A stretch of DNA of 64,000 bases, taken from assembly GCA_944332525.1 (NCBI GenBank), contig CALVKD010000070.1, positions 4,014 to 68,013 of the forward strand. The letters run 5' to 3'. Positions 7,271-39,663 of this stretch are shown here, one piece after another; the first letter of the stretch is position 1, and the number at the start of each line of letters is the position of its first letter. The position numbers were made by a program, and so were the translations under genes. Below the pieces are notes generated by a model that did no database searches, was not told the origin of the DNA, and was given only the letters and a program-made list of their open reading frames with translations. Source of the stretch: an uncultured Bacilli bacterium (GTDB taxonomy: Bacteria; Bacillota_I; Bacilli_A; RFN20; CAG-449).

Positions 7271-7470
7271 GCGCTTACGTAATAGATTTAGGCATATACG
7301 AAATACTAAAAACTTTTTATATGCCAAATTTTATCATCTAATTACAAAATATGAACCTGTTTGGTGAAAACGGACTCGTAAATAAAAAGCACATCAGATT
7401 ACAAAATCATAATGTGCTTCTTTATAAACGGTCCGAATTAATCAAACACGTTCTATAGTGAGGTTTTATT

Positions 7471-7611: not shown

Positions 7612-7627
7612 TGATCGGAGATAATTT

Positions 7628-9628: not shown

Positions 9629-9636
9629 TAATTTGA

Positions 9637-9672
9637 AGATAGCTACATATATAGCTATCTTCTTATTTATTT
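9637..9672 (+). terminator. Rho-independent terminator
   Basis: Perfect 9-bp inverted repeat agatagcta/tagctatct (loop catata) followed by tcttatttattt. Confidence 0.55.
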
Positions 9673-9711
9673 AATTGATATCCTAGAATACGATAAGTAT
9701 AATGAGGTATA

Positions 9712-10413
9712 GTGTTTATGATACGTATTATAGTACTTGACGATGATTATGAAGCATACAATACTTTAAAGATATTTATTGACCAGTTTTCAAAAGAAAA
9801 CAACATTGGTTTTGAAATCAATTATTTTTCTAATCCATTAAGTTTTCTAGATGATTATACACCTGCAGATTTAATTTTAATGGATATTGATATGCCATAT
9901 CTAAATGGAATAGAAACCGCAGAAAAATTAAGGAGTAAAGACCCTAATGTTCTTTTGATATTCATTACAAACTATGTACAATATGCCATTAAAGGCTACT
10001 CAGTAAACGCAATTGATTATGTTTTGAAGCCAGTAAAATATGCACGTTTTTCTTCACTAATGTCTCGAGTTCTTAAAATGATAATTGCCTCTAAAAATGA
10101 CAATATCATTATTAAAACAACAGATGGTACAATAAAAATAAATGCTTTTTTGATTATCTCTGTTGAGGTTAGTGATCACCTATTAATTTATCATACAGAT
10201 TCTAAAGAATATGAGGCTTGGGGCAGTTTAAAAGAGACAGCTTTGATGCTTCCTAGTTATTTTGAGCGTTGCAATCATTCTGTCATTGTAAACTTAAAGA
10301 AAGTGATAAGACTTGATAAAAACGAAATTACATTAACTGATGGAAATAAATATTTAATTTCTCAAAAGAAAAAAAGTGATTTCATTTCAAAGTTAAATAG
10401 GTTTTTAAAATAG
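9712..10413 (+). CDS. LytTR-family response regulator (AgrA/ComE-like)
   Basis: N-terminal receiver domain (IIVLDDD...LMDIDMP...K). C-terminal LytTR DNA-binding domain (~100 aa). The true start is probably MIRII at 9718. Confidence 0.85.
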   Translation: MFMIRIIVLDDDYEAYNTLKIFIDQFSKENNIGFEINYFSNPLSFLDDYTPADLILMDIDMPYLNGIETAEKLRSKDPNVLLIFITNYVQYAIKGYSVNAIDYVLKPVKYARFSSLMSRVLKMIIASKNDNIIIKTTDGTIKINAFLIISVEVSDHLLIYHTDSKEYEAWGSLKETALMLPSYFERCNHSVIVNLKKVIRLDKNEITLTDGNKYLISQKKKSDFISKLNRFLK

Positions 10414-10414
10414 T

Positions 10415-13676: not shown

Positions 13677-16600
13677 ATGAATAAAAAAGTATTTTCAGTA
13701 ATTATGGCTTCTGCTACGGCATTGCTAGCTGGAATTATGATTACTGGTAATATTCTCGGATTTAAAACATATTCAAGTTTTTTAACCACATATTTTGGCA
13801 TGGAAGGAACAACAGAAACAAATATTGATGATAATCAATATTTTCCGCGCATTCTAAAATCTGCTGAAGAAGCTTCAAAAAAGTCTGCTGAAATATGTGA
13901 ACAAGTAGAAGAGGAAGGCGCAGTTTTATTAACTAACCACAATAATTCTTTGCCACTTAATAAATCCAGTAATGTTAGCGTTTTTTCTCAATCTTCAGTC
14001 GATTTTGTCATTGGATCTACCGGAGGATCTGGCGAGATATCTGCTTCGGAATTAACGTTGCAATCAGCATTAGAAAATGTTGGAATAAACGTTAATCCGA
14101 CACTAATAAATTTTTATAAAAGTATGAATTATCATCGAAAAATTGGTGGATTAGCTCAAGGAACTAGCAAAGATCCTTTTTTATGGTCTATTAATGAAAT
14201 TCCATATAGTAAATATACTGATGAAGTAAAAAATTCATATAAAAATTATAATGATGCAGCTATCGTTGTCATTTCGCGTACCGGTGCTGAAAATGCCGAT
14301 TTGCCTACAGATATGGCCTCTGCAGATTCAAGAAACAAACGTGGTTCTACATCTATTTTAGAACTTGATACTGATGAAAAAGAACTTCTTAAAAATGTTA
14401 CAAATAATTTTGATAAAGTAATCGTATTGCTTAATACTACTAATGCTTTTGAATGTGGATTTCTCGATGACTATGATATTGATGCATGTCTATGGGTCGG
14501 TGGTGCTGGTCAATATGGTTTAAATGCTATAGCTAGACTTTTAGTTGGTGATAGCAATCCATCTGGTCATTTGGCAGATACTTATGCATATGATGTTTTT
14601 TCATCTCCAGCAATGCAAAATTGGGGTAATTTTGCTTATGTCGATGATTCGGGAAAAGAAACAGGACATCATTACGTAACATATGCCGAAGGAATATATG
14701 TCGGCTATAAATACTATGAAACGCGCTACGAAGATAAAATTATGAATCAGGGGAACGCTGGTGAATATGATTATGATAGTGTTGTTCAGTTTCCATTCGG
14801 ATATGGACTATCGTATACCGAGTTTACTTGGTCTAATTTTGATTATGCTTTGGACGATAAAACAATTAATATTAAAGTTACAGTCACAAATACGGGTGAA
14901 AAAGCAGGTAAAGAAGTAGTTCAATTTTATACGCAATCCCCATATACTCAATATGATATCGACAACCAAATAGAAAAATCCGCTGTTAATTTGATGGGTT
15001 TTGCTAAAACAGGCATATTAGATCCAAATCAAAGCGAAACAGTAAAAATTTCTATTCCACTTGAACGATTAAAATCATACGATGCAAATGGTTTAGGGAC
15101 ATATCTTCTTGAAAAAGGTGATTATTATTTTACTGTAGCGGAAAATTCACATGAGGCGATAAATAATATTCTCAAAGTAAAAGGGTATAATGTAAATGGT
15201 AACGAAAATTTATGTGAAAAAGATACCCTAGAAGAAATAATTTATAATAAAGATACGACCACCAACACTGAGATTGTTAATCAGTTTGAAGATGCTAATG
15301 GTGATAAAAAGTATCTAAGCCGTCATGATTGGTCATCAATGAATAATAATGGTTTAAGGGATGGCACAAACGAAAATAATCGCTATGACAATGATGGTTA
15401 TATTTATGAGCAAAAAATAACACCTGAATTAAAAGAAACATTAGAAAAAACGGGATATGAAGCCGCTAATGCGCCAGAACAAGAATATTCTGATCCAACA
15501 TTCAATGCTAATAATAAAAAAGTTTTAATCGACATGAAAGGAAAAGAGTTTAATGACCCTGAATGGGATCCACTTCTTGATCAATTACGTATTAAAGAAC
15601 TTGAGCAGATGGTTACATCATCTGGGCATAAAACATATGCAATTCCTTCTGTTGGAAAACCATATGCAACTGATTCTGATGGAACATCAGCATGGAAATC
15701 ATTTATTGGTGATGGTGTAAATGCAGGTGGAATGCCTAATGAAACTGTACAAGCATCCACTTTTAATACCGAATTAGAATACGAAGTTGGACAAATAATG
15801 GGTGAATTGGCACTTTGGGCAAAAGTTACTGCCTCAGCTCAAACCACAAATTTGACTGGTTGGTATGCACCTGCAATGAATTTGCATCGCACACCTTTCG
15901 GCGGTCGTAATTTTGAATACTATTCCGAGTGTCCGATGTTATCTGGAATTATCGGTTCATCTGTTGTCAAGGGAGCTACCGATAAAGGGGTCATAACATA
16001 TATCAAACATTTTGCCTTTAATGAACAAGAAACAAATAGAATGACCAACAATGTAACTTGGTCGACTGAACAAGCATTACGTGAGACTTATCTTTTGCCT
16101 TTTGAAATGTCAGTTAAAGAAGGTGGATCACTTGGTGTGATGACTGCTTATCCCCGTGTTGGAACAACTTGGACCGGAGGTAGTTATGCGCTTATTACTA
16201 ACGTTTTAAGAAAAGAATGGGGATTCAATGGTTTTGTAATCACTGATTATATGGATGGTGATTATGAAAATTGTGACCAAATGTTAGCTGCTGGTGGTGA
16301 TGCCGCACTTTGTTTAGAGGAACAATATGTTACTACAGAAGGCGCACGAGCACATACGTATCTCAGAAATGCAGCACATCATCTTTTATACTCATTTGTA
16401 AATTCTAATGGTATGAACGGAATTGATGCTAACAGTTTAATTGTCGGGGGTACTCCTGTTTATTACAGAATTATGATTTTTTTCAATATAACCTTTGGAA
16501 CATTAATTCTTCTAACAATATTTTTAACAATCTTAGGAATTATTCAACAAAGAAAAATTAAAGCATTATCTGGAGGAAATTCAGGAAATTTTAATAATGA

Positions 16601-19526
16601 TAGCGAATTAAAAAATGATAATACTGTCGATAACAAATCGAAAACATCAAAAGAATTAACTGAAAAACAAATTCAAAAACAAGTAGCTTTGCCATTAAAA
16701 ATTAAAATCATTATCGGTGGTATTGTCATTGCTATTATAGTCTCATCTGGATTAATACTATACTTTACTAGAGAGAAAAGCGATTCTAAAACGTCAACAA
16801 GTCTTCCAGAAATCGTTAATCCTCTTGATCCAAATACAGACTTAATGAACAAATATGGACAAATTACAAAAAAGAATTTATTATCCGGAAGCAAATTTGA
16901 TCAAAACAATCAAAAATATATGTTTTTTGATGATTTATCAGCTGGATATTATTATGAAGCTGAAGATGCTACACTATCGTCAAAACCACAAATTCAAGAA
17001 AGTTTAATTACTTCTGGCGGAAAATTTGTTAGCCACTATCAAGTTGGAGAAACTATTTCCTTCACAATTCAATCTACAGTCGAAACATCAGCCTTGCTGA
17101 TTCTATCAACAGCTTGTTGGGATAATTCACCTAGACTAATATCTGACCTTCTCTTTGGTCAATTTGGTACTAATCCGAATTCTCTTGATTTCTATATGGA
17201 TTTTAGCGATAGAACAATTCAAGGTCAAAACAATTGGAATATATTTTCTGAAAGTTATATATGTGAAGTGTATCTTTACGAAGGAGAAAATACTATTGAA
17301 TTTTCAGCTTATGAAGATTTAAATCTTGATTATATGTGTTTAGTCAATCCTGGAGCAGGTTTAAATCTACCTTCTCAAGAAAATGATCCAACTGACTACA
17401 ATGCAAAATATGGTCATCCTGATAAAAGAATACTGACTAAAGGAACATCAACATTTTCTATAAACGAAAGAGGATATTATTATGAAGCTGAAGAAGCAGA
17501 ATTATCTAGCAATATCCGTATTGATAATAATGGGGCTGCTTCCGGTCAAAAAAATATTTCATATTTTAACCCTGGCGAATACATGAAATTAGTTATAACA
17601 TCTGACGATGATGCTTCAGTAATGTTAAGTGTCTCAGCTAGTGAATACAATTCTAAAGATTTCTTAGTTGAAAATGTATTAATGGTCAAATATGGTAATG
17701 ATGAAAACAATTTAACAGAGCTAGATACATATCAAAATATAATTCACACTACTGGTGGATGGAACAATTTCAGCGAATCTATAATTGGTGAGATTCATCT
17801 AAAAAAAGGACAAAATATTATATATTTAATTTCCAAAGCTGCTCTGAATTACGATTATATTACTTTAGTAAATGTATGGGATGGAACGCCTGATCCAGTT
17901 TTACCTCCTGACGAGGAAACCCCACCATCTGATATTAATTATGAAGAAAAATATGGATTACCAACTAAACAAGTGCTTAGTGATGGCTCAGCAATGAAAT
18001 TTGATAATTCTGTTCGTGGATATTTCTACGAGGCTGAACAAGCTTATTTGTCAGAAGGAATTAATATCAGCGATAATGTTGCTGCTTCCGGAGGAAAAAC
18101 AATTGATCATTTCCAAAATGGTCGATATATGGAATTTACTATAACTAGTTCTATCGAATCAGATGTTTTACTTCTTTTATCCGGTGCAAAATATGAAAAA
18201 GGCGATTATTCAATCGGTTCAATCATGAACGTTACTTATCATTTGGAAGGCGAAGAATCTAAATCTCTAGTACCGTCACCTAAACCATTCTCTCCTATTG
18301 GTGATAGTTGGGATACTTATAAAGAATTTGTCGCCGGAGAAATACATCTTAAAGAAGGTAAAAATATTATTCGTATTACATCAACCAATATTCCTGTAAA
18401 CTATGATTATATTATGCTTGCATCTCCATATTCAGGAGAAGAACCTGAAAAAGATGATTATAGCAACAAATATGGCAATCATGAATTCAGCGAATATCTA
18501 AACGGAACAGAAAATATGATTTTTTCTAACTCCGCATGTGGATATTTTTATGAAGCTGAATCTGATTTAGTGAAAAAAACTGGAGATATTCAGAATGAAA
18601 ATGTTGCAGAGGGTGTTACGGCTTCGGGAAATGCTTTTATAAATCGTTTTAGAAGAAATGCTACAATGACTTTAACCATTACATCAGAAATAGAAAGTGA
18701 TGTCTTAGTTCGCTTTTCTGGTTGCACAGGAAGCGCAAATGAAGCCTTACCTGTTGCATCTTATATATTACTTTCGTACGGAACTACTGAAGATAATCTT
18801 ACAAAAGTAGATAATAGTTCTTTGACGTTCTCGTCAAAGGGCTCTTGGAACAAGTTCACTGAATTTACCATAGGAGAAATCCATTTGAAAAAAGGAATAA
18901 ATTATATTGTTCTAACTGGAATTGAAAATAATGGTGTTAATTGTGATTATATAGCCTTAATTAATCCAAAAAATGAAACTGAAGATACTCCGGCTTATCC
19001 AACGCTAGAGGAAAAATATGGCGATCCAAATTTTTCTGAATACGTATTAGGTACCGGAGATATTGATACTTCATCACGCGGATACTATTATGAAGCTGAA
19101 TCTGATATTATTTCAAAAAATGGTGATATTCAAATTGAAAATGCTGCAGAAGGAGTAAATGCTTCCGGTAATGCATTTATAAATCGCTTCAGAAGGAATG
19201 CGACAATGACATTAAAAATAAGTGTTTCCGAAGAAATGACTATGCTTGTTAGGTTTTCCGGCTGTATTGATAAAAAAGCAGAAAATCTTCAAGTAGCAGA
19301 TTATATTTCTGTAAAATATGGAACATCTCTTGATTCTTTACTATCATCTGATAATTCATCTTTACTCTTCTCTTCATTGGGTGATTGGAATAAATTTAAT
19401 GAATTCTCTATCGGAGAAATTCGTCTTATGCCAGGCGATAATTATTTAGTTTTGACAGGTGTAGAATACAATGGAATAAATTGCGATTATATAGCCTTAG
19501 TAAACGCCTTAAATTTGGTGCAATAA
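13677..19526 (+). CDS. Giant surface glycoside hydrolase family 3 (beta-glucosidase/xylosidase-like) with permuted domain order, an internal 2-TM hairpin and five C-terminal CBM6/35-like repeats
   Basis: Signal peptide. GH3 C-terminal-type domain motifs (VLLTNHNNSLPL, VVVISRTGAENADLP). Fn3-like module (EVVQFYTQSPY). GH3 catalytic (beta/alpha)8 domain with nucleophile motif GFVITDYMDG. Hydrophobic helices at about aa 925-950 and 1010-1035. Five ~178-aa repeats, each starting KYG...GY(Y/F)YEAE and ending N(Y/C)DYI(T/A/M)L. Confidence 0.8.
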   Translation: MNKKVFSVIMASATALLAGIMITGNILGFKTYSSFLTTYFGMEGTTETNIDDNQYFPRILKSAEEASKKSAEICEQVEEEGAVLLTNHNNSLPLNKSSNVSVFSQSSVDFVIGSTGGSGEISASELTLQSALENVGINVNPTLINFYKSMNYHRKIGGLAQGTSKDPFLWSINEIPYSKYTDEVKNSYKNYNDAAIVVISRTGAENADLPTDMASADSRNKRGSTSILELDTDEKELLKNVTNNFDKVIVLLNTTNAFECGFLDDYDIDACLWVGGAGQYGLNAIARLLVGDSNPSGHLADTYAYDVFSSPAMQNWGNFAYVDDSGKETGHHYVTYAEGIYVGYKYYETRYEDKIMNQGNAGEYDYDSVVQFPFGYGLSYTEFTWSNFDYALDDKTINIKVTVTNTGEKAGKEVVQFYTQSPYTQYDIDNQIEKSAVNLMGFAKTGILDPNQSETVKISIPLERLKSYDANGLGTYLLEKGDYYFTVAENSHEAINNILKVKGYNVNGNENLCEKDTLEEIIYNKDTTTNTEIVNQFEDANGDKKYLSRHDWSSMNNNGLRDGTNENNRYDNDGYIYEQKITPELKETLEKTGYEAANAPEQEYSDPTFNANNKKVLIDMKGKEFNDPEWDPLLDQLRIKELEQMVTSSGHKTYAIPSVGKPYATDSDGTSAWKSFIGDGVNAGGMPNETVQASTFNTELEYEVGQIMGELALWAKVTASAQTTNLTGWYAPAMNLHRTPFGGRNFEYYSECPMLSGIIGSSVVKGATDKGVITYIKHFAFNEQETNRMTNNVTWSTEQALRETYLLPFEMSVKEGGSLGVMTAYPRVGTTWTGGSYALITNVLRKEWGFNGFVITDYMDGDYENCDQMLAAGGDAALCLEEQYVTTEGARAHTYLRNAAHHLLYSFVNSNGMNGIDANSLIVGGTPVYYRIMIFFNITFGTLILLTIFLTILGIIQQRKIKALSGGNSGNFNNDSELKNDNTVDNKSKTSKELTEKQIQKQVALPLKIKIIIGGIVIAIIVSSGLILYFTREKSDSKTSTSLPEIVNPLDPNTDLMNKYGQITKKNLLSGSKFDQNNQKYMFFDDLSAGYYYEAEDATLSSKPQIQESLITSGGKFVSHYQVGETISFTIQSTVETSALLILSTACWDNSPRLISDLLFGQFGTNPNSLDFYMDFSDRTIQGQNNWNIFSESYICEVYLYEGENTIEFSAYEDLNLDYMCLVNPGAGLNLPSQENDPTDYNAKYGHPDKRILTKGTSTFSINERGYYYEAEEAELSSNIRIDNNGAASGQKNISYFNPGEYMKLVITSDDDASVMLSVSASEYNSKDFLVENVLMVKYGNDENNLTELDTYQNIIHTTGGWNNFSESIIGEIHLKKGQNIIYLISKAALNYDYITLVNVWDGTPDPVLPPDEETPPSDINYEEKYGLPTKQVLSDGSAMKFDNSVRGYFYEAEQAYLSEGINISDNVAASGGKTIDHFQNGRYMEFTITSSIESDVLLLLSGAKYEKGDYSIGSIMNVTYHLEGEESKSLVPSPKPFSPIGDSWDTYKEFVAGEIHLKEGKNIIRITSTNIPVNYDYIMLASPYSGEEPEKDDYSNKYGNHEFSEYLNGTENMIFSNSACGYFYEAESDLVKKTGDIQNENVAEGVTASGNAFINRFRRNATMTLTITSEIESDVLVRFSGCTGSANEALPVASYILLSYGTTEDNLTKVDNSSLTFSSKGSWNKFTEFTIGEIHLKKGINYIVLTGIENNGVNCDYIALINPKNETEDTPAYPTLEEKYGDPNFSEYVLGTGDIDTSSRGYYYEAESDIISKNGDIQIENAAEGVNASGNAFINRFRRNATMTLKISVSEEMTMLVRFSGCIDKKAENLQVADYISVKYGTSLDSLLSSDNSSLLFSSLGDWNKFNEFSIGEIRLMPGDNYLVLTGVEYNGINCDYIALVNALNLVQ
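16900..19526 (+). repeat. Five tandem ~535-bp intragenic coding repeats (CBM-like modules) inside the GH3 gene
   Basis: The YYYEAE motif recurs at approximately 16950, 17480, 18020, 18550 and 19090. The two 3'-most copies are most similar to each other (ASGNAFINRFRRNATMTL in both). Confidence 0.6.
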
Positions 19527-19735
19527 TGAAAAAAACACTTCTTACAATCATATTTTGTTTTATGGTTATGACTTCCTGTAAAACAACCAATATTACGGAA
19601 CACTCTGAATTGAGTTCTTCATTTCCATCAATAGCTACTGCATCTCAGCCAGTTAACTCTTTGGATACAGAAATTAATCAAATTTCAAAAGAAGAATATA
19701 TATCAGATAACATGAATTTTGGAAGTCTAATATAA
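19526..19735 (+). CDS. Small lipoprotein (69 aa)
   Basis: ATG overlaps the GH3 stop by 1 nt. Signal peptide plus lipobox MKKTLLTIIFCFMVMTSC. The listed 84-aa ORF (19481) is upstream read-through. Confidence 0.45.
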   Translation: MKKTLLTIIFCFMVMTSCKTTNITEHSELSSSFPSIATASQPVNSLDTEINQISKEEYISDNMNFGSLI

Positions 19736-19760
19736 AAACGGGGATTACCCCGTTTTTTTA
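19735..19760. terminator. Bidirectional terminator between the convergent lipoprotein gene (+) and ribF (-)
   Basis: aaaacgggg-atta-ccccgttttttt hairpin with flanking A- and T-runs. Confidence 0.6.
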
Positions 19761-21380
19761 ATGCACAGATTTTAACTTCTTTTGAAAGTATTCTAATGTT
19801 TCACTAATAAGAGATACTTCATCCGTGACATAGTCTTCATATTTTTTGACACCGATAAGATAATAATTGTTGATGACATCAGAGAGTTTAGCTAACGAAG
19901 CATATGGTAATGTATGAATAAATTCATGTGTTAATGAGACATCGTTAAGGAAAGCGTTAATTAGATCTTCTTTACCAAGATTACCTTTTTCATATTCTTT
20001 ATACACACTTTCGATTAATCTTAAACGAGTTAAATCAATCTTTTCTCTTTCTTCATCAAAGAAAATCATCTTATCAAAGAAATCGTGGTCATAAAGCGAA
20101 ATAGCAAAGATTTTGCTCTCGTTAACCATCAATGAGTAGCCGTGCAGAGAAAGATAGACACCTTCAAGTGAGGTCTTAATTAATGCACGATCAATTTTTT
20201 TAGCTTCATCGAGACTCATTCCGTTACGAATTCCGTTAAATAAAGCAAAATCAGAGGAAAAATAATCGATTTCCATTAATTCATCAACTTCCGAAAATAA
20301 CAGATAAGCATCGTCTAATTTTAAAAGCTTAGTCACTTCATCGCATTCATAGGTTGGACCTTGTTTTAACAAATCTTTTTCTGTTTTACTAAATTTAACT
20401 AAAATTTCAGATGCTTTCTGTCTAAAATGATACTCTTTAACTCCAAGATATGGGATTAAATATTCATTGCAGTCATAAAAGCGTTTTAAATCATTTTTGA
20501 TATGTTCTTCATCTAAATCTAATTGCTTTTTTAAATCATCAACTGAAGAAAATTTCTTCTCATCGCGAATAAAACTGATAAATGAAACCTCAATTTCTTT
20601 ATTATAAATATTTCCATTAAAATCAAAGAGATTAACTTCTAAAATTGGAGTTTGAAGTTCATTGATAGTTGGATGCACGCCAATATTTGCCATGCCCATA
20701 TAATAACAATCATCAACCCTAACTAAGACGCTATAAACGCCGAAACGCGGAATGACATAATTACCCATCTCGACATTCGCGGTTGGATAAAGAGAAACGG
20801 ATCCGACGTGGAAACCCTTTTCAACTTCGCCCCGTATCACATAAAACCGTGATAATAAACTATTCGCATGGTCAATCTCGCCGTTTTCAATATATTTAAT
20901 AATCTCTCTTGTTGAAATTTTCTTCTCACCATCAAGAATTTCTTTAACTTCAACAACTTGATAACGACCTCTGGATAATTTTGCAAGAAGTTCATTGTTA
21001 CCTTGAGCTTGATAGCCAAATGAGTAATCCTTTCCGACTATTAATTCTTTAGGATTAAGTTTTATTAAAAGTTCTTCAACGAAATCATCAGAGGAAAGAT
21101 GTTTTATCTCTTCAGTAAATTTTAAGACGATTAAATATTCTACACCTAAGCGTTCAAGAATATTTTTCTTATCTTCGATGGTTAAAATATTTTTTTTGTT
21201 TTTTAATCCGATATCACTAGAGAATTCTAAAGTTAAAACAGCTGAATGATATTTAGATTTTAATGCGCGTTTAATTAGTTCTAGGTGTCCAAGATGCAAA
21301 CCATCAAAATACCCTAAACATAGAGATAATTCGTCTTTTATTTTTTTTATATTATCAAGTGAAATATTAATTACTTCCAT
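19758..21380 (-). CDS. ribF: Bifunctional riboflavin kinase / FAD synthetase with an extra ~240-aa C-terminal domain of unknown function
   Basis: N-terminal nucleotidyltransferase GYFDGLHLGH (HxGH). Riboflavin kinase domain (RGEVEKGFHVGS...PTAN). Canonical RibF is ~310 aa; this ORF is 540 aa. Confidence 0.8.
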   Translation of the reverse strand: MEVINISLDNIKKIKDELSLCLGYFDGLHLGHLELIKRALKSKYHSAVLTLEFSSDIGLKNKKNILTIEDKKNILERLGVEYLIVLKFTEEIKHLSSDDFVEELLIKLNPKELIVGKDYSFGYQAQGNNELLAKLSRGRYQVVEVKEILDGEKKISTREIIKYIENGEIDHANSLLSRFYVIRGEVEKGFHVGSVSLYPTANVEMGNYVIPRFGVYSVLVRVDDCYYMGMANIGVHPTINELQTPILEVNLFDFNGNIYNKEIEVSFISFIRDEKKFSSVDDLKKQLDLDEEHIKNDLKRFYDCNEYLIPYLGVKEYHFRQKASEILVKFSKTEKDLLKQGPTYECDEVTKLLKLDDAYLLFSEVDELMEIDYFSSDFALFNGIRNGMSLDEAKKIDRALIKTSLEGVYLSLHGYSLMVNESKIFAISLYDHDFFDKMIFFDEEREKIDLTRLRLIESVYKEYEKGNLGKEDLINAFLNDVSLTHEFIHTLPYASLAKLSDVINNYYLIGVKKYEDYVTDEVSLISETLEYFQKKLKSVH

Positions 21381-32225: not shown

Positions 32226-32807
32226 TTATCTCATAACCGGGTAGATTTTATTTAATCTAGCTAATGGATAATATAAAACCAATAAAATAATTAAGTCGAT
32301 AAAATATGTCGGAGCAATATAGGTGATATTATAAGCAAATGAGCCAGCCCAAGGTGTATCATAAGCTAAAGTACCAGAAACGACATGTGATAAATAACGA
32401 ATAACAAATACTAAAGTTACTGATAGAATGATATAAATATATGGATCAGCTGAATGAACAACGCCATCACCTTCATCGGTAAAAATAAATTTTCTAAATA
32501 ATCCTGCTAAACCAATTGCCCCAAACGGAATAATATAGTCAAAGAAGGCTGAAATCGCACCATATTGGAAAATATATCCGTCATAAAGCCCTTGAGCTAA
32601 ACCATAAATAATTCCGCCGCAGATAAATCCTTTAATCGCACCGTGGCGATATGCGATGAAGAATAACGGGACCATAGCAAAGCCAATTGATCCGCCGTTA
32701 GCGCCAACCTTTATTTCGCAGAACATGCCAAGAACAATAGCAAGAGCTGTGAAAATAGCCATCTCGCACATATCATAAACCGAGATGAGTTTTTTCTTTT
32801 TTGTCAT
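32226..32807 (-). CDS. thiT: ECF-transporter S component, thiamine-specific (ThiT-like)
   Basis: ~190-aa 6-TM protein, directly downstream of a TPP riboswitch. Confidence 0.7.
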   Translation of the reverse strand: MTKKKKLISVYDMCEMAIFTALAIVLGMFCEIKVGANGGSIGFAMVPLFFIAYRHGAIKGFICGGIIYGLAQGLYDGYIFQYGAISAFFDYIIPFGAIGLAGLFRKFIFTDEGDGVVHSADPYIYIILSVTLVFVIRYLSHVVSGTLAYDTPWAGSFAYNITYIAPTYFIDLIILLVLYYPLARLNKIYPVMR

Positions 32808-32821
32808 AATTTAATTCCTCT

Positions 32822-32955
32822 CTAAGAAAAAAGCTTTCCTAGGTAAAGGAAAGCAAAAAGTTCAAAAGTATTCCTTTCGCTAGCATTACCTAGATCAAGT
32901 TTGGTCGAATCACTATCTAGATTCCTCTCAGCCCAGTTATACTGAGCTCCCGTAA
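32822..32955 (-). promoter_or_regulatory. TPP (THI-box) riboswitch with terminator-type expression platform
   Basis: Minus-strand RNA contains GGGCUGAGAGGAAUC...GACCAAACUUGAUCUAGGUAAUGCUAGCGAAAGGAAUA (match to THI-box CUGAGA and ACCUGAUCUGGAUAAUGCCAGCG-AGGGAA). Then GCUUUCCU-uuaccu-AGGAAAGC hairpin plus U6, about 15 nt before the thiT start. Confidence 0.8.
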
Positions 32956-32993
32956 ATATAGTAAACGATATCGTTTCTTATGTAAATATCAAC

Positions 32994-33476
32994 CTAACGG
33001 AAGATAAAGATTTTTCTGCCTAGATAATTAATTACTAACCCGATAATGGTCATAATAATTCTTGCGACAATATAAGGCACTGGAAGCAAATCGCTCAAGA
33101 GATAAATACCTAAATAAGATAGTAATAAAACAAATACTCCAATTAAGGTAAATACTAAAAAGTCGCGGACGCTTTTACCCTCTTTTTCATCTTTTTTATT
33201 TTTATAAACAAAAATAACAGATAATATATAATTGATAATTAAGCCAACAATAAAACCAAAGGTTGTCGCTAAAGCTTTTTCAATATGCCAGTTTCCGAGA
33301 ATAATCTCCGGTAATAAGTATTCTTCGGAAATAAAACTGACCGCCCAGTCAACTAACGTCGCTAATCCGCCAACAATCAAGAAACGAAAGATTTCCCAAA
33401 TTAAATCGCGATGTTTTAAATACAATTCTTTTAACTTCATGCCTAAAATCTTACTCCCATAATTTGAAATAGTCAA
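32994..33476 (-). CDS. GtrA-family small polytopic membrane protein
   Basis: 160 aa, 4 predicted TM helices, GtrA-like organisation. Lies 36 nt downstream of the nucleotidyltransferase gene. Confidence 0.55.
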   Translation of the reverse strand: MTISNYGSKILGMKLKELYLKHRDLIWEIFRFLIVGGLATLVDWAVSFISEEYLLPEIILGNWHIEKALATTFGFIVGLIINYILSVIFVYKNKKDEKEGKSVRDFLVFTLIGVFVLLLSYLGIYLLSDLLPVPYIVARIIMTIIGLVINYLGRKIFIFR

Positions 33477-33511
33477 TTGAAGATTTTCAAAGATAACAAT
33501 TGTCTAAAATA

Positions 33512-34609
33512 TTATTCAATTCCGAATTTAATTAAACCATCATCTTTGCTTTCAACGCTTAAAACTTTATTTAGTTTATCCCTTTTTGTAAAAAGCAAGC
33601 TAATAAAATGATGGATATAGGCAAAAGGAATCAAAATAATAGAACGAGAATAAGGATATTTTTCAAATAGCAGATGCAAAGGGATAAAAACCTTTTTTAG
33701 CAAATAGACAAACTTGTTATCCTTTGAATGGGCAAATTTGCTTTTATTGATATCATTTTCCTTTCCAAAACCATGTATTCCTGAACGCAAAGAATAATTA
33801 ATCAATTCTTCAATGTCATCGCGTTTATAGTATTTCATTCCGCATTGAATTAGCTGCTCTGGATTATATTCAAAAATATATTCTAATTCATTAATAATCG
33901 TATTAAAAAAATCACTAATCTCTAATTCATTAACATATGAGAGAATTTTTTGATAGTTCATTTTTTTCTTAGTCAGCATTAAATAAACATCTCCGAGTTC
34001 ACGTACTCCCGCTCCGGATTTTAAATGTTTATGGTAATGCATCAATAAAAAAACAAAATGATATTCATCTTCTAGATGGCAGCGATAGCCCTCACAGCTT
34101 TTAATATATTTGAAAGGATTATGGAAAAATTTATCGCCTTTTTCACCTTCTTCTAAAAGTTGATGATGAAGTTCGGCATAAGATTTATCGTAAACATATT
34201 CCGCGTGGTGTTTAGCTATCGAATCGAGAACAAAAGAGTTTTCTTCTAATAGTTTCCGAGCTTTTAGATAATCTTTGCCGTCAACGCAAAAATCAATATC
34301 GCCAGATAAGCGAAGATTTCTATCATCATATAAAGGAAATAGTTCATAACCTTTAAAGAAGAAATATCTAATTTGATTCGCCGAGAAAATATCAGCAATT
34401 TTTTCAGCTATTTCGTCGTATTTTTCATGTAAAACAAACGAAGAAAGATAATATTTCTTAAAACGCGAGTCATTAGATACTTTATATAAATAAGGCAAAA
34501 AAGTTTGCTCAGAAATAATTCTCATCTGATTTTTTAATTCTTCATCAGAAGGAAGTGTTATTTTTCTATTTTGAATGCCCGCCGAAAATAAATTTAAAAT
34601 AAAATTCAT
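33512..34609 (-). CDS. Nucleotidyltransferase-fold protein (PF14907-like 'uncharacterised nucleotidyltransferase', as found tailoring lasso peptides)
   Basis: hG[GS]...DhD motif LRLSGDIDFCV about 100 aa from the N-terminus; 365 aa; start overlaps the ABC gene stop. Confidence 0.55.
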   Translation of the reverse strand: MNFILNLFSAGIQNRKITLPSDEELKNQMRIISEQTFLPYLYKVSNDSRFKKYYLSSFVLHEKYDEIAEKIADIFSANQIRYFFFKGYELFPLYDDRNLRLSGDIDFCVDGKDYLKARKLLEENSFVLDSIAKHHAEYVYDKSYAELHHQLLEEGEKGDKFFHNPFKYIKSCEGYRCHLEDEYHFVFLLMHYHKHLKSGAGVRELGDVYLMLTKKKMNYQKILSYVNELEISDFFNTIINELEYIFEYNPEQLIQCGMKYYKRDDIEELINYSLRSGIHGFGKENDINKSKFAHSKDNKFVYLLKKVFIPLHLLFEKYPYSRSIILIPFAYIHHFISLLFTKRDKLNKVLSVESKDDGLIKFGIE

Positions 34610-36174
34610 AATTCACCTAAATCTAAAATTTTTACATCGCTTGGTAAAATTAAATCATGATGAGTAATAATCATCTTTGATTTATTTATCGCAAGTAAAT
34701 TATTAACAATCTGATTTTCAGTATTTTTATCAAGAGAAGAAGTAAATTCATCAAGGAGTAAAATTTCTTTATCAAGAAGCAAATTAATCGCTAAAAGTAT
34801 TCTTTGAATTTGTCCGAGAGAAAGCCCACCGCCTCTTTCATAAAGAGGTGTATCTAATCCTTTTTCTTTTTGCATTAATTCATCATAAATACAGGCAGTT
34901 TTTAATGCCTCAACAATTTTTTCTTCATTCGCGTCATTCACGAATAAGGCAATATTTTCTCTAACTGTTCCAGAGAATAAAATATTATCTTGAACAACAT
35001 ATGAAAACAAACCATACACGTTGGATAATGGATATTTCTTTCCATTAGATATCACATCAAGTTCTCCACTTTTTGGTTTTAAAAATCCTAAAAGTAAATT
35101 AAATAATGTCGATTTACCGCGTCCAGATGGTCCTTTAATAATCAATGTCTCGCCTTTATAAAAAGTAAATGACAAATTTTTAAAAATCGGATAATCAAAA
35201 TCAAAGCAAAGGTCTTTTACTTCAATTTTTTCAAAATCGCTTATTTCAATTCTTTGGTAATCATTAGGAAGCGACAATAATTTATCAACTCTAGCTTTAC
35301 TTACTTTATAAGCATTGTAACGCGATAACAATGATCCAAATCCGGAAATAGGGCCTTCAAAATAAGAAACGAGCATCGTAAGTGTCGTTAATTCGCCAAA
35401 AGATATTTTATCATTAGAGATAAGATAAGCTCCAAAAATTACGGCTAATGCTGATATCAAATTTAAAAATAGTGAAAATCCCCCACTTCCAATAATTGAA
35501 AGAAAGTTACGTTTATTTTTAATTCGATAGTTATCAAGCATTTTTTGATCGAGCAATTTAGAAAAATTCGTCTCGGCATCATTAGCCTTTATCATCTTGA
35601 TATTTTCATAACTTTCCTGCATAAAAGCATTAACTTTTCCATCGCTTTCCAATGCTGCTTTATGAAATTTTTTTAAATAGGAAGAATAGATTCTTGAAAG
35701 AAGAAATGCAATGACTGCAATTGCTAACAAAACTAATAAAATCTGATAAGAAATAATTGCAATCGCAGCAATAGCTAATACAAACCGCGAACCATAAAGA
35801 AAAAGTGAAGGTATAATTTCACTGACACCGGCGTTAATATTATTAACATCATTAAGATAAATATTCGAAAGTTCTCCGCTATGATAAGCGCGTAATGATG
35901 TAAGATCTTTTTTTAAAAGATTATCATATATCTCTTTCTTCAGATGAACTTCAACTCTTAATGATAATTTATTTCTAATCATCAAAGCGACAATAGAAAT
36001 AGCGATTAAAACAATGATAATGGAGAGAAATAGAATAACTAACCAAACCAAGGGCTTTTTTGCGACTGCATTATCAATTAAATAGCGAGCCAAAAATGCC
36101 TCAGCAATTAAAAGCGAGGAACGAATAACGTTGATTATTGATAAAATAGTTAATGATAATTTAAGATTTTTCAT
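34606..36174 (-). CDS. ABC exporter, fused permease-ATPase half-transporter (no C39 peptidase domain)
   Basis: Six N-terminal TM helices. Walker A GPSGRGKST. ABC signature LSLGQIQR. Walker B ILLLDEFTS. H-loop. Confidence 0.85.
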   Translation of the reverse strand: MKNLKLSLTILSIINVIRSSLLIAEAFLARYLIDNAVAKKPLVWLVILFLSIIIVLIAISIVALMIRNKLSLRVEVHLKKEIYDNLLKKDLTSLRAYHSGELSNIYLNDVNNINAGVSEIIPSLFLYGSRFVLAIAAIAIISYQILLVLLAIAVIAFLLSRIYSSYLKKFHKAALESDGKVNAFMQESYENIKMIKANDAETNFSKLLDQKMLDNYRIKNKRNFLSIIGSGGFSLFLNLISALAVIFGAYLISNDKISFGELTTLTMLVSYFEGPISGFGSLLSRYNAYKVSKARVDKLLSLPNDYQRIEISDFEKIEVKDLCFDFDYPIFKNLSFTFYKGETLIIKGPSGRGKSTLFNLLLGFLKPKSGELDVISNGKKYPLSNVYGLFSYVVQDNILFSGTVRENIALFVNDANEEKIVEALKTACIYDELMQKEKGLDTPLYERGGGLSLGQIQRILLAINLLLDKEILLLDEFTSSLDKNTENQIVNNLLAINKSKMIITHHDLILPSDVKILDLGEL

Positions 36175-36593
36175 TAAATTTTCCTCAATTTAATTATTAA
36201 GTAACGAAGAAAGCGAAAACGCCAAAAGAAAAGATAGATGCGATATTTTTTATCTGAAAACAAAACTTTCTTTTCGTTAATAATAACATAGATAGCTTTG
36301 GCAAGAATCTGATCTTCACGAATATTTTTTTCAATTTTTGTTTGATGGTCACCGAGAAGAAAGAACTTATTCTTCTTCACTTTAAAAATTCTATGCAATA
36401 CGTATTGTCCGTTATCGCGAAGATAAAAAACAATATCATTTTTCTTTAAGGCAAATGGTTTGCTTAATGCAACTAAATCACCCGTATGAAGGAATGGCTG
36501 CATCGAAGTCCCGTTGATCGGCATAATAAAGACTTTATCTTGTTCGAGAGTCTCTTTTAAACCATCAACAAAAAAATTAATCTCCATAAACAA
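36174..36593 (-). CDS. Soluble S26/S24-family (signal-peptidase I / LexA-type) Ser-Lys peptidase
   Basis: GTSMQP (S26 box B, catalytic Ser), with a downstream Lys. 139 aa; no TM segment. Confidence 0.55.
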   Translation of the reverse strand: MFMEINFFVDGLKETLEQDKVFIMPINGTSMQPFLHTGDLVALSKPFALKKNDIVFYLRDNGQYVLHRIFKVKKNKFFLLGDHQTKIEKNIREDQILAKAIYVIINEKKVLFSDKKYRIYLFFWRFRFLRYLIIKLRKI

Positions 36594-36852
36594 TATTAAG
36601 TGTCTTCAGCTGATTAATTGTCACGATGATGTCTTGTTTGGCTTTTTCTTTGCTAACATCATATTCTGCAACCATCTTTTCAGTTATATCATCAATGGAA
36701 AGATTATTCATAACACCTTCGACTATCAAAAGGGATGTCGGGTTTAAAGTAATGACTTTTGAATAATCGACACTTTTTTTACTTTGGCGAACTAGCAATG
36801 CTTCATCACCAACTTTTTTAATCACATAATCTGTATTAAATTTCATAATCAT
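36577..36852 (-). CDS. PqqD-like small protein (RiPP recognition element-like)
   Basis: 91 aa. Composition and pattern are PqqD-like: a hydrophobic beta-strand start (YVIKKVGDEALLV) followed by helical segments (LLIVEGV...IDDITEKMVAEY...). Tight overlaps with both neighbours. Confidence 0.5.
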   Translation of the reverse strand: MIMKFNTDYVIKKVGDEALLVRQSKKSVDYSKVITLNPTSLLIVEGVMNNLSIDDITEKMVAEYDVSKEKAKQDIIVTINQLKTLNIVYGD

Positions 36853-37669
36853 CCTCCAAAACTTTCTTTAATGTTAGCACCGCTTCTTGAGAAATGTCAC
36901 AGGATAAAGCATAAAAGTTTACTGAAGAGAGAATCTTATCAGTTACTTCATCCCAAATTTCCTTTGCTAACATAAATGAGGTATTAAGAATATGCGGAAG
37001 CAACTTAATAAAACCATCTTTTGGTTTTACTTTAGAAGCGACATTTTTACCTCTACTTAATAAAACTATACCTTTTAAAGGGACAATTAAATTATTGTCA
37101 ATTAAAGATTTTCCAGAAAAAGGATTTGGGTAAATAAGCAATTGATTATCTTTAAGCAAGATTAAATTCTTATCATCATTTATCGTCGTAACATTACAAT
37201 ACTTCCGCCATAAATCAGCATGCGTAGATTTTCCTGTTCCTGAGGAAGCTACGAGTAAATATCCATTACCTTGATAAGCAAATGATGAAGAATGGATGAG
37301 TATACCTTTTTTTCTTTTAAAAATAAAATAGAGAAAAGCATATTCGCACATTAAATATTCACTAGCGAATGTTTTGAATTTTTCATCAATATAAATCGTC
37401 GCAGTGTTTTCGCGATAAACGATAATTCCTAAGTTTTGTTTATCAGCAGTCATTTGCTTTTGATAGAGACATTCTCCTTGATATATTTCATAAAAAGCTG
37501 ATGAAATAATTTTTTCATTAGGTAAAGAAGGTAATGTTGAAGTAAACACCACTTCGATAACAACATCACCCTCTGCTTCACTTTGATATTTTTGGAGCTG
37601 AGAAATCATTTTTAGGGAATGGACAAGAAATTGAAAATTTACCTCGCCAATCAAGCAATTTATAATCAT
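36836..37669 (-). CDS. HPr-kinase C-terminal-domain-like P-loop kinase (HprK-related)
   Basis: P-loop LLVASSGTGKST. Overall size and arrangement resemble the HPrK/P C-domain and the lasso-peptide kinases. Its ATG overlaps the pdp stop as ATGA. Confidence 0.55.
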   Translation of the reverse strand: MIINCLIGEVNFQFLVHSLKMISQLQKYQSEAEGDVVIEVVFTSTLPSLPNEKIISSAFYEIYQGECLYQKQMTADKQNLGIIVYRENTATIYIDEKFKTFASEYLMCEYAFLYFIFKRKKGILIHSSSFAYQGNGYLLVASSGTGKSTHADLWRKYCNVTTINDDKNLILLKDNQLLIYPNPFSGKSLIDNNLIVPLKGIVLLSRGKNVASKVKPKDGFIKLLPHILNTSFMLAKEIWDEVTDKILSSVNFYALSCDISQEAVLTLKKVLEDDYEI

Positions 37670-38967
37670 TCAATAACCTCGTAAATGAGTTTTGATGGTT
37701 CAACTACTTCATCGCTAAAAGCGTAGGAATCATGAATAAGTTGCTCCGCTTCGGCAAATTTTTCAAAGTTTGTATACAGATAAGCTAAAATATCGCCTTT
37801 TTTTACCACATCACCAACTTTTTTTGTCAAAGTAATGCCGCTAGCATAATCAATCGAATCTTCTTTTTTAGCTCTGCCAGCACCTAAAAGCATCGCACCT
37901 TCGCCAATTTTTAAAGCGTCGATAGCTTTAATATAGCCATCATGCTTTGAAATAAGCGGTTTAACTATTTTTGCCTTAGGGAACTTATCAAGATCATCAA
38001 TATAAGTAGAATCGCCACCCTGTGCTTTGACCATCTCTTTTAATTTAGCTAAGCCCTCACCGGAAGCAATATGCTCTTTAATAAGTTTTTCCCCTTCAGT
38101 TACTGTTTTACAAATATTTGCTTGGGTTAAAATAATTCCGCCTAATCTCACGCATAAGGTCTCAAAGTCTTTTGGACCATGTCCTTTTAAAGTATTAACC
38201 GCCTCAATAACTTCTAAAGCATTACCGATATTATTACCAAGCGGTTCGTTCATATCGGTGATAACCGCTTTGGTGTTTTTATTGAAGGCTTTGCCAATTT
38301 CAACCATCAATGAAGCGAGTTTTTTTCCGTCCTCTAATGTTTTCATGAAAGCTCCATTACCAAACTTAACATCGAGAAGAATAGTATCTGCATTAGCCGC
38401 GAGTTTTTTTGACATAATTGATGAAGCGATTAACGGAAGGGAATCGACTGTCGCAGTAACATCTCTTAAAGCATAAAGTTTTTTATCAGCAGGAACTAAA
38501 TTTTGGCTTTGACCAATAATAGCAATATTAATATCATTAACCTGTTTGATAAATTCTTCACTGGTAAGATTAATTCTCATTCCCTTAATTGATTCAAGTT
38601 TATCGAGAGTTCCTCCGGTATGTCCTAATCCTCGTCCGGACATCTTTGCTACCTTAACTCCGCAGCTTGCAACCAAAGGGAGTAATGCTAACGAAGTTTT
38701 ATCACCTACTCCACCCGTGGAATGTTTATCAATTTTTACACCTTTTATTTTACTTAAATCAATTACATCACCTGAATGTAACATCGCTTCCGTCAGAGCA
38801 AAGGTTTCTTCTTTGGTCATCGAATTAAAACAGATGGCCATTAATAAAGCCGAAACTTGATAATCCGGTATTTCATTATTGACGTAACCTTTAATAAAAA
38901 AATTGATTTCTTCCTTGCTTAAAGGAAGATTAAGTTTCTTTTTTTCGATAATTTCTGTCATTAGCAT
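37666..38967 (-). CDS. pdp: Pyrimidine-nucleoside phosphorylase
   Basis: 433 aa. Glycosyl-transferase family 3 motifs (DKHSTGGVGDK, SGRGLGHTGGTLDKLE). Confidence 0.9.
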   Translation of the reverse strand: MLMTEIIEKKKLNLPLSKEEINFFIKGYVNNEIPDYQVSALLMAICFNSMTKEETFALTEAMLHSGDVIDLSKIKGVKIDKHSTGGVGDKTSLALLPLVASCGVKVAKMSGRGLGHTGGTLDKLESIKGMRINLTSEEFIKQVNDINIAIIGQSQNLVPADKKLYALRDVTATVDSLPLIASSIMSKKLAANADTILLDVKFGNGAFMKTLEDGKKLASLMVEIGKAFNKNTKAVITDMNEPLGNNIGNALEVIEAVNTLKGHGPKDFETLCVRLGGIILTQANICKTVTEGEKLIKEHIASGEGLAKLKEMVKAQGGDSTYIDDLDKFPKAKIVKPLISKHDGYIKAIDALKIGEGAMLLGAGRAKKEDSIDYASGITLTKKVGDVVKKGDILAYLYTNFEKFAEAEQLIHDSYAFSDEVVEPSKLIYEVIE

Positions 38968-39027
38968 AATTAATCTCTCTCTTTCTAGTACATTATAGCA
39001 AAGAAAAGAATGAAAAAAAACCAGACA

Positions 39028-39663
39028 TTAATGTCTGGTTTCATTTAAATGGCGAGATAAGATAACTAATGATGAAGCCATATTCTCATTTTGAACAATA
39101 ATATCCTTATTAACATTTAATTTAGTAGGGGCAAAATTCCAAATAGCCTTCACTCCGCTTCGGACGAGATTATCGCAGGCTTCTTGCGCATGGACGGCCG
39201 GAACAGTGATAATTCCAACATGTATTTCATGTTTCTTACAAAAAGAAGGTAATTCCGCTAACGATTTAATCGTATATCGTCCAACTTTTTGATTTATTTT
39301 ATCAGGATTCTTATCAAAAGCTGCAACAATTTCTAATCCATACTCAGCAAATCCTTGATAATTAAGCAAAGCTGTACCTAGCGAACCGACACCGATTAAA
39401 ACTGATTTATTATTATTCTTCATTCCTAAAAATAATGAAATATCCGTCAAAAGCTCATCGATTTCATAACCGACTTTCGGCTTGCCACCAGTACGTGAAA
39501 TCAAAGCTAAATCTTTTCTGACTTGAACATCATTTAACTCTAAGCTTTTAGCAATTGCTGTTGATGAGAGATATACTTCTCCCTGAGCTTTCATCTTTTT
39601 CAGATAATCCAAATAAAAAGGAATTCTCTTAAGTGTGTTTTGTGAAATATATACTTTTCCCAT
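39028..39663 (-). CDS. rex: Redox-sensing transcriptional repressor Rex
   Basis: N-terminal wHTH plus Rossmann GxGxxG (GVGSLG). 211 aa. Confidence 0.85.
   Translation of the reverse strand: MGKVYISQNTLKRIPFYLDYLKKMKAQGEVYLSSTAIAKSLELNDVQVRKDLALISRTGGKPKVGYEIDELLTDISLFLGMKNNNKSVLIGVGSLGTALLNYQGFAEYGLEIVAAFDKNPDKINQKVGRYTIKSLAELPSFCKKHEIHVGIITVPAVHAQEACDNLVRSGVKAIWNFAPTKLNVNKDIIVQNENMASSLVILSRHLNETRH

Follow-up and report, generated by a model that had tools for sequence, protein, structure and literature searches.

A stretch of 64,000 nucleotides from an uncultured Bacilli bacterium (contig CALVKD010000070.1), referred to here as the window, carries five overlapping minus-strand genes at 33512-37669 that encode a P-loop kinase, a PqqD protein, an S24/S26-like peptidase, an ABC exporter and a nucleotidyltransferase-fold protein of family PF14907. 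By analogy with known peptide pathways, these genes probably constitute a self-contained cassette for leader-dependent peptide maturation and export, the product of which would be a short linear modified peptide. We also favour the view that the cassette descends from, or is sister to, the machinery that makes phosphorylated lasso peptides, without its macrolactam cyclase and its transglutaminase-type leader protease. The substrates seem on balance to be small peptides of ribosomal origin whose leader reads M-K-K-K-Y-x-x-P-E-[MI]-E-[IV]-h-x-F-x-x-x-D-[VI]-I-x-x-S, and the open reading frame (ORF) of 46 amino acids (aa) at 7471-7611 is the probable substrate of the cassette in this window. An earlier, sequence-only reading of this DNA had proposed a lasso-like tailoring and export operon that lacks a cyclase and the B2 protease and in which an S26-type peptidase serves as leader peptidase, and the evidence from protein families, folds and conservation supports that proposal. 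We found no published description of the cassette or of the peptide family in open-access text.

The five-gene cassette and its proteins

The five genes overlap one another by 1-17 nt, in agreement with the sequence-only reading. The kinase gene (277 aa, 36836-37669) shares 17 nt with the PqqD gene (91 aa, 36577-36852), which in turn shares 17 nt with the peptidase gene (139 aa, 36174-36593); the exporter gene (522 aa, 34606-36174) overlaps the peptidase gene by 1 nt and the nucleotidyltransferase gene (365 aa, 33512-34609) by 4 nt.

The 277-aa protein, with its SSGTGKST motif, had been likened to the C-terminal domain of HPr kinase, and it proved to be an HprK/PEPCK-fold P-loop phosphotransferase and a candidate peptide kinase, though it matched no family of the Pfam set searched at E<=1, PF07475 (Hpr_kinase_C) included. 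Its NCBIfam matches were weak (ScmC, 5e-4; HprK-related kinase A, 4e-3). The newer Pfam family PF27840 'ScmC' is carried by homologues of 96% and 89% identity (P0001 and P0002; precomputed matches), and a distant homologue, P0018, has PF07475 together with PF27840. An alignment of 22 kinase homologues revealed that H126, S143-G-T-G-K-S-T-H150, N164-x-D166 and P183-x-x-G-K187 are invariant. The AlphaFold2 (AF2) model, with a predicted local distance difference test score (pLDDT) of 94.2, matched PEPCK (1yvy, 7.5e-8) and HprK/P (1knx/1kkl, ~3e-6) in Foldseek, and the PEPCK-like P-loop fold with its His, GxGKS and xDD catalytic residues is present in the window kinase. BsfK, a proven lasso kinase, scored 36 bits against the profile of the cassette kinases, over the H...GxGKST core only; the BsfK and BsfB1 sequences used for profile scoring were taken from the gene sequences printed in PMC10368454. 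Two proteins of the kinase family, P0181 (529 aa) and P0063 (536 aa), either carry the kinase domain twice or are extended by a long stretch at the N-terminus.

The assignment of the 91-aa protein to the PqqD family was confirmed by its match to PF05402 (E=3e-10, above cut-off). Its sole significant match in the PDB is TfuB1 (6jx3, E=0.0035), a lasso recognition element of the kind (RRE) that serves peptides made by the ribosome and modified after translation (RiPPs), and BsfB1 scored 36 bits over 78 columns of the cassette PqqD profile. The lasso-specific NCBIfam models remained below their cut-offs on this protein (29 vs 70).

The peptidase matched PF00717 (Peptidase_S24) above cut-off (E=6.5e-8) and the archaeal-type signal peptidase model TIGR02228 with E=6.7e-11, its scores for PF10502 and TIGR02228 lying below their cut-offs. 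Across 43 cassette homologues G28, S30, M31, P33 and R68 are invariant, H67 is conserved in 93% and G81-D82 in 98%, and the signature GxSMxP ... LHR ... GD is that of a Ser-His pair of the endoplasmic reticulum (ER)/archaeal/SipW type. The earlier description of a soluble signal-peptidase-I/LexA-type enzyme with a GTSMQP motif therefore holds as to solubility, S24/S26 fold and motif, but the catalytic pair is Ser-His rather than Ser-Lys. Hydropathy analysis found no transmembrane (TM) or hydrophobic segment, and thus no N-terminal membrane anchor. The AF2 model (pLDDT 85.7) comprises a LexA/signal-peptidase barrel followed by a long, basic, amphipathic C-terminal helix (residues 115-137), and its Foldseek matches include the LexA C-domain, SipA, SpsB and SEC11A. 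The enzyme, our proposed leader peptidase, shares its fold and its Ser...His-Arg...Gly-Asp catalytic signature with the S26B signal peptidases I of ER, archaeal and SipW type, but differs from them in having no TM anchor, a length of 139 aa, a C-terminal amphipathic helix and a place inside a RiPP-like cassette.

The ABC exporter is half-size, with a transmembrane domain (TMD) and a nucleotide-binding domain, and both domains of the fused protein that had been read from the sequence were matched (PF00664, 2.1e-34; PF00005, 1.4e-22). Among the NCBIfam models it comes closest to type I secretion and bacteriocin exporters, to which it aligns from the TMD onward (in bacteriocin exporters, from model position ~150-190); Pfam and NCBIfam matches included no C39 peptidase domain, and the protein begins with the TMD. 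The nucleotidyltransferase-fold protein, with its LSGDIDF motif, is a member of PF14907 (NTP_transf_5), as anticipated (E=4.6e-26; 92.3 bits vs a cut-off of 31.2), and is the proposed decorator of the phosphate. Natural fusions join PqqD to the kinase (P0026), the kinase to PqqD (P0113), the kinase to the S26-like peptidase (P0096), the S26-like peptidase to PF14907 (L017, 4563-6227) and the kinase to PF14907 (P0049). These fusions cover four of the five cassette proteins, the ABC exporter being the exception, and indicate that the kinase, PqqD protein, peptidase and nucleotidyltransferase work together.

The five-gene neighbourhood is conserved elsewhere, as the earlier reading expected. Relatives of the kinase occur in more than 593 species-representative genomes among the matches listed, mostly metagenome-assembled genomes (MAGs) of gut and rumen Clostridia, Bacilli and 'Mollicutes', and a HMMER search of 1.84 billion representatives returned 4,329 kinase matches (50%-identity clusters) at E<=1e-30. 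Among 39 kinase loci with full flanks, the PqqD gene was found in 27, the S26-like peptidase in 25, the ABC exporter in 17 and PF14907 in 8, the complete set being present in 8; PF14907 was also found in 18 of the 20 peptide-linked metagenome cassettes described below. The flanking genes vary by locus (LuxS, adenylosuccinate lyase, DUF1846, NAPRTase, GroEL, DegV and others), and are unrelated housekeeping genes, so that the cassette acts like an autonomous and mobile module.

The lack of a lasso cyclase and of a B2 protease was likewise upheld. No Asn-synthetase-like cyclase or transglutaminase-type B2 protein was found among the recurrent neighbours in ~80 kinase loci, where other families recur in at most 6, and no Asn-synthetase or transglutaminase family is recurrent near the peptides in 103 peptide loci. 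There was no lasso cyclase or transglutaminase among the window ORFs scanned (most of those of at least 400 aa), and a transglutaminase-type B2 protease is absent from the operon. Proteins of 440-560 aa encoded after the kinase in L012, L014 and L061 were considered as lasso cyclases and rejected, being SLH-domain surface proteins.

The cassette lies within a unit of seven minus-strand genes that spans 38967 to 32994. The first is pdp (pyrimidine-nucleoside phosphorylase; 37666-38967; TIGR02644, 4e-177), and the last, separated from the nucleotidyltransferase gene by a 35-nt gap, encodes a GtrA-family membrane protein (32994-33476; PF04138, 6e-24), which had been recognized correctly. Terminator-like hairpins on the same strand mark the start of the unit upstream of pdp (39017-39042; 11-bp stem then T-run) and its end past the GtrA gene (32833-32854; 8-bp stem then T-run), and the stretch from pdp to GtrA thus looks like one transcription unit. 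The claimed coupling to pdp is present as a 4-nt overlap with the kinase gene, but the pdp-then-cassette order is kept only in the close relatives L005 and L214 and is absent elsewhere. Similarly, GtrA follows the cassette in L005 and L214 and not in L001, L010, L011 or L216; L214 (50% identity) retains the order pdp-cassette-GtrA-ThiT, and in L216 the five genes lie elsewhere. Because this synteny is limited to the window's clade, pdp and GtrA were rejected as members of the cassette. The 186-nt gap at 32807-32994, upstream of the ThiT thiamine-transporter gene, contains the hairpin 32854-32833, and Rfam revealed no thiamine pyrophosphate (TPP) riboswitch there; no Rfam family reached its gathering score in the whole 64-kb window, so that neither the operon nor its surroundings hold a riboswitch or other known RNA. 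The reported AT-richness of the region is real but modest, the GC content of the five cassette genes being 0.29-0.31 vs 0.33-0.36 in the flanks, and it is matched at 39.5-40.5 kb of the window.

A family of leader-bearing candidate precursor peptides

In several loci, small ORFs directly upstream of the kinase have a common N-terminus. A hidden Markov model (HMM) of the leader, built from 12 such ORFs and without the window peptide, identified the 46-aa ORF at 7471-7611 on the plus strand (MERKKYTTPEISVCNLILDDIIAVSSVDTEKDIFDFDDAFEDVFTK), outside the coordinates of the earlier note, as a candidate precursor. It scored 26.7 bits (E=6.6e-7 in the window), as against 9.9 for the best of ~55,000 reversed decoys and 9.0 for the next window match, and is the sole family member in the 64 kb. 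Its leader reads Y6-x-x-P9-x-I11 ... D20-I-I22 with the conserved Ser25 at Tyr+19, and all invariant leader positions (Y6, D20, I22 and S25) are present. The sequence GAGG stands 7 nt upstream of the ATG, and in related strains the peptide is 93% identical and called as a gene.

The family comprises 127 distinct members, with the consensus MK[KE][KR]Y[ET][TS]PEMEI[IV]EF[ED]TED[VI]ITTSG; in 30+ loci they are encoded on the kinase strand, upstream of the kinase, and no NCBIfam model matched the peptides at E<=10. Their tails are rich in Gly, Asp, Glu and Pro, acidic and essentially Cys-free, with a median of 15 residues (range 2-43). Motif-anchored peptides have Tyr in 120/120, Pro at +3 in 115/120 and Met, Ile, Val or Leu at +5 in 120/120 cases, and Ser occupies Tyr+19 in 17 of the 23 peptides whose search left that position free, the window peptide with its Ser25 among them. 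In 13 loci selected by their kinase, a family peptide shares the strand of the kinase and is encoded 0-2.7 kb upstream of it, and two loci of the window's clade, L001 and L010, encode family members at a distance of 1-5 kb from the cassette.

In a reverse test, metagenomes were scanned for the peptide by itself, by means of a degenerate DNA pattern written by hand. Of its 120 matches, 103 were true family small ORFs and 17 were false; kinase and PqqD genes were present in 20 of the 103 true-peptide loci vs none of the 17 false-match loci. In these 20 linked loci the peptide was always on the kinase strand, and 24 of the 25 peptide genes lay upstream of the kinase by 0.1-4.8 kb.

The statement that no precursor ORF exists is correct for the operon, but a family peptide is encoded elsewhere in the window. 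A precursor within the operon was rejected: all ORFs of 20-60 aa in 32.8-39.1 kb overlap large genes, and none is family-like. The related suggestion of a non-ribosomal or unlinked substrate fares similarly, in that the candidate is indeed unlinked, but it is ribosomal.

A 51-aa ORF (MKKISKVFALILSVFCLAAFAACGGG...) upstream of the kinase in L002-L004 was set aside on account of its small-lipoprotein look and lack of a match to the peptide family. This ORF (L002 9842-9997, also in L003 and L004) has a signal peptide and a lipobox-like Cys (MKKISKVFALILSVFCLAAFAACGGGNKNDKNSGGAEGSVNWDDEGWTGNY) and lies 4 nt upstream of the kinase gene; in these cassettes without a family-type peptide it may represent an alternative type of substrate. 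A sub-family of longer peptides (49-66 aa; L012 5058-5207, L014 4839-5024, L061 9399-9599 and L042) has a YxKPxLEV leader and no Ser at Tyr+19, each peptide gene being followed by the kinase and then by an SLH-domain surface protein.

Two further features were seen beside peptide genes. A 104-bp insertion at 7350-7453, upstream of the window peptide gene, is lacking in four related loci, L090-L093, that are nearly identical otherwise; it forms a palindrome whose 42-nt arms (7353-7394 and 7412-7453) are 71% complementary, occurs as a single copy in the window, and may be a small mobile hairpin element, possibly altering the peptide promoter. In L010, from a 'Mollicutes' MAG, the stretch 16220-20810 downstream of the peptide and its terminator has almost no ORFs of at least 60 aa (table 11), with a signal-peptide-like start visible at 16266; this could reflect a different genetic code or poor assembly.

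Genes beside the peptides

The window peptide gene is followed, after 16 nt, by a gene for a secreted 666-aa protein with repeats resembling carbohydrate-binding modules (CBMs) (7628-9628, plus strand; one N-terminal hydrophobic segment; weak DUF7383 and CBM35 matches), and the same synteny is found in L090-L093. Next, also on the plus strand, come genes for a LytTR-type response regulator (9712-10413; Response_reg 2.2e-14, LytTR 1.7e-13) and an AgrC/ComD-type histidine kinase (10415-11734; HATPase_c_5, PF14501, 1.3e-19) with 6-7 TM segments between residues 39 and 215 by hydropathy. In L144, five tandem peptide genes run into the kinase-PqqD-peptidase genes, with a divergent pair of LytTR and histidine kinase genes alongside. 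Between this pair and the peptides, at 2205-2243, is an 18-nt imperfect direct repeat with 21-bp spacing (CTCTTTGGCAGGAATGTC / CTTTCTGGCAGGAACGTC); direct repeats at such a spacing are typical of LytTR-box geometry. Since a LytTR/AgrC-type pair stands beside the peptides both in the window (7471-11734) and in L144, as in Agr/Com signalling, a signalling peptide is the leading guess for the product.

The 615-aa protein encoded after the histidine kinase (11727-13574) has a domain in common with a 1,949-aa GH3/CBM6 protein at 13677-19526 (phmmer, 1.3e-16), and the peptide/LytTR locus is therefore embedded among genes for secreted carbohydrate-binding proteins and glycoside hydrolases. A GH3 gene and a truncated response-regulator fragment also lie ~2-5 kb upstream of the cassette in L011.

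Proposed pathway and alternative readings

The closest parallel is offered by lasso pathways. Lasso leaders carry the motif Y(-17)xxP(-14)xL(-12), which is recognised by B1 proteins (PMC10368454). In the bsf cluster of Bradymonas sediminis (BsfA/B1/B2/C/D/K/N), the HprK-like BsfK phosphorylates Ser3 of the precursor BsfA in a reaction that the RRE BsfB1 greatly speeds, and its catalysis needs H148, G163, K169, S170, D186 and D187 (PMC10368454). The phosphorylated Ser3 of BsfA falls at Tyr+19, the same register as the Ser of the peptide family. The bsf cluster resembles the cassette in its discrete PqqD RRE, its HprK-like kinase with H...GxGKS...DD, its predicted nucleotidyltransferase and ABC exporter, and a precursor with YxxPx[LMI], a Ser 19 residues after the Tyr and an Ile near the leader end. 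However, the cassette lacks an Asn-synthetase-like cyclase and B2 and has a soluble S26-like Ser-His peptidase instead, its kinase resembles BsfK in the catalytic core only, and its hosts are gut and rumen Bacillota rather than Deltaproteobacteria. Nor is the post-leader region of its peptides lasso-like: lasso cores have a small N-terminal residue and Asp or Glu at 7-9, whereas the peptide family has no conserved acidic position.

The phosphorylated and glycosylated lasso pathways of Firmicutes (paeninodin and pseudomycoidin) share with the cassette the pair of kinase and nucleotidyltransferase, PqqD and an ABC exporter, but their kinases target a C-terminal Ser and a cyclase is present. In pseudomycoidin the lasso nucleotidyltransferase adds hexoses to the phosphate, and such nucleotidyltransferases are sometimes fused to the B2 leader protease (PMC8498205), which parallels the fusion of S26-like peptidase and nucleotidyltransferase in L017. 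By this analogy, the L017 fusion would be the counterpart of the lasso B2 fusions and supports the leader-peptidase role of the S26-like enzyme.

Two other systems are partly similar. SynChlorMet (PF27840, TIGR04249) pairs a ScmC-family P-loop protein with a PqqD-like protein, and close homologues of the window kinase carry PF27840, but the window kinase reaches only 19.4 bits against the TIGR04249 equivalog cut-off of 125, and the operon has no radical-SAM/SPASM gene (ScmE/F). Double-glycine (GG) export by peptidase-containing ABC transporters resembles the pathway proposed here in its small leader-bearing peptide and in removal of the leader at the cytoplasmic face coupled to ABC export; the cassette leader, in contrast, is of lasso type rather than GG, the peptidase is a separate S26-fold enzyme instead of C39, and RRE, kinase and nucleotidyltransferase are added.

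In the pathway that we propose, the PqqD protein would bind the YxxPx[LMI] motif of the leader, as lasso B1 proteins do, and recruit the HprK-like kinase, which would phosphorylate the near-invariant Ser at Tyr+19 (Ser25 here). Where present, the PF14907 enzyme might then add a sugar or a nucleotide to the phosphate. The soluble Ser-His peptidase, presumably held at the membrane through its C-terminal helix, would cut off the leader, and the ABC half-transporter would export the short linear modified peptide.

A number of points weigh against this scheme. We infer all of its chemistry (phosphorylation, decoration and cleavage) by analogy, and the site of cleavage is ambiguous: lasso numbering places it behind Tyr+16, and the -1/-3 rule (small residues) of signal peptidases places it behind the Ser. 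The peptides do not end in Ser, the residue on which the known Firmicutes lasso kinases act, and the Ser at Tyr+19 was imposed by the search pattern in the metagenome peptide set, so that only the set of 23 peptides is unbiased. The kinase stands alone, with none of the partner genes, in 8 of the 39 full-flank loci. Peptides and cassettes correspond loosely and many-to-one: with at least 3 kb of downstream flank, only 14 of 38 peptide loci carry the cassette, and unlinked peptide genes like that of the window are common. The window peptide itself lies ~26 kb from the nearest cassette gene and is linked to it by family membership, not adjacency, and the close relatives L011, L214 and L216 have no family peptide within 10 kb of the cassette. 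As to signalling, and unlike typical Agr/Com loci, the window showed no LytTR-type repeats at 7265-7475, 9600-9720 or 38960-39060, the stretches upstream of peptide and cassette included, and LytTR genes lie near the cassette in only ~5 of ~190 loci; a general association with LytTR was rejected on this count, and the association was treated as lineage-specific. Finally, a large secreted surface protein adjoins the peptide in 57 of 103 loci, making it the most frequent neighbour, and this is not explained by the model.

The separation of ~26 kb and the peptide-free surroundings of the cassette in L011, L214 and L216 could mean that the ORF at 7471-7611 is not the substrate, being otherwise processed or unexpressed, and that the cassette acts on an unlinked peptide from outside the window. 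We regard this as unlikely, given that the ORF is the only family member in the 64 kb and retains Y6, D20, I22 and S25, and that no other leader-processing machinery is evident beside it.

The surface proteins raise the possibility of a role at the cell surface, in which the peptide would be a partner, anchor or maturation factor of the adjoining surface proteins, or the enzymes would act on those proteins or on wall polymers. In 56 of 66 cases the next gene upstream of the peptide is that of the surface protein, and the proteins carry BspA-LRR, DUF285, GLUG or cohesin domains, with Flg_new and SLH in other loci. Many have a common C-terminal module of ~70 aa (...Y.I.I.NI.A.EL...Y...Y.Y.VL...L...VKALY.Y...A..Y), examples of which among L094-L211 are L094 2638-5853, L153 1975-2484 and L164 5393-7186; a second C-terminal type ends in ...Y.RGYMI.....YSD...GSY, and no Pfam family was found to cover either type. 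Next to the window peptide there is a downstream gene for a secreted CBM-like protein, and GtrA comes after the cassette here; some loci have an LCP gene after the kinase, and the structural matches of the peptidase include SipA, a signal-peptidase homologue needed for pilus assembly. On the other hand, a small peptide destined for export is what the PqqD RRE, the lasso-type leader and the ABC exporter suggest; neither GtrA nor LCP is conserved as a partner, and many cassette loci have no surface-protein genes. A cell-surface role seems improbable, but as an idea about what the product does it agrees with the maturation chemistry proposed here.

Still less probable is that the same maturation yields an antimicrobial, bacteriocin-like product, with the small N-anchored membrane protein that is often encoded next after the peptide providing immunity. 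Such a product would fit the dedicated ABC exporter and the tandem copies of peptide genes whose tails vary (L057, L144 and L172), but the tails, with a median of 15 residues, are very short, free of Cys and strongly acidic, unlike most bacteriocins, and the cassette is located among housekeeping genes. We consider it very improbable that the cassette is a detached piece of an ordinary lasso pathway whose cyclase and B2 are encoded at other places in the genome and whose product is a lasso peptide that is phosphorylated and glycosylated: leader motif, RRE, kinase and nucleotidyltransferase are all lasso-associated and only 64 kb of this genome were covered, but neither enzyme family recurs in the ~80 kinase loci or the 103 peptide loci, the cassette has its own peptidase, fused to the kinase or the nucleotidyltransferase in some genomes, and the post-leader regions have no conserved acidic residue at 7-9, often begin with Thr and in many cases are too short for a lasso, down to 2 residues past the Ser.

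Our preferred reading remains that of a leader-dependent cassette for a short linear modified peptide. Its parts are known; what is new is the combination of a lasso-type leader and RRE without a cyclase and with a signal-peptidase-fold leader peptidase. More tentatively, and as a possibility that we would not put at even chances, gut and rumen Bacillota may make wide use of a class of ribosomal peptides not described before, for which the lasso-type leader and RRE would have been repurposed without a cyclase to direct Ser phosphorylation, with sugar or nucleotide addition as an option, and from which a soluble signal-peptidase-fold enzyme would remove the leader. The short linear phospho-peptides would then act outside the cell as signals sensed by Agr-like two-component systems, or as partners of the conserved C-terminal module of surface adhesins.

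If the proposed pathway is correct, the microbiota of human gut and rumen would possess a RiPP-like pathway that is both new and very common, with thousands of kinase clusters and well above 100 distinct precursor peptides among the matches listed. This would mean that the leader/RRE recognition module of lasso peptides is in use outside lasso biosynthesis, and that a signal-peptidase-fold enzyme is able to act as a cytoplasmic RiPP leader peptidase. The predictions are concrete, namely the 46-aa substrate, the phospho-acceptor Ser and the recognition residues Tyr and Pro, and the pathway would open up an unexplored peptide signalling or surface-protein biology in mostly uncultured organisms.

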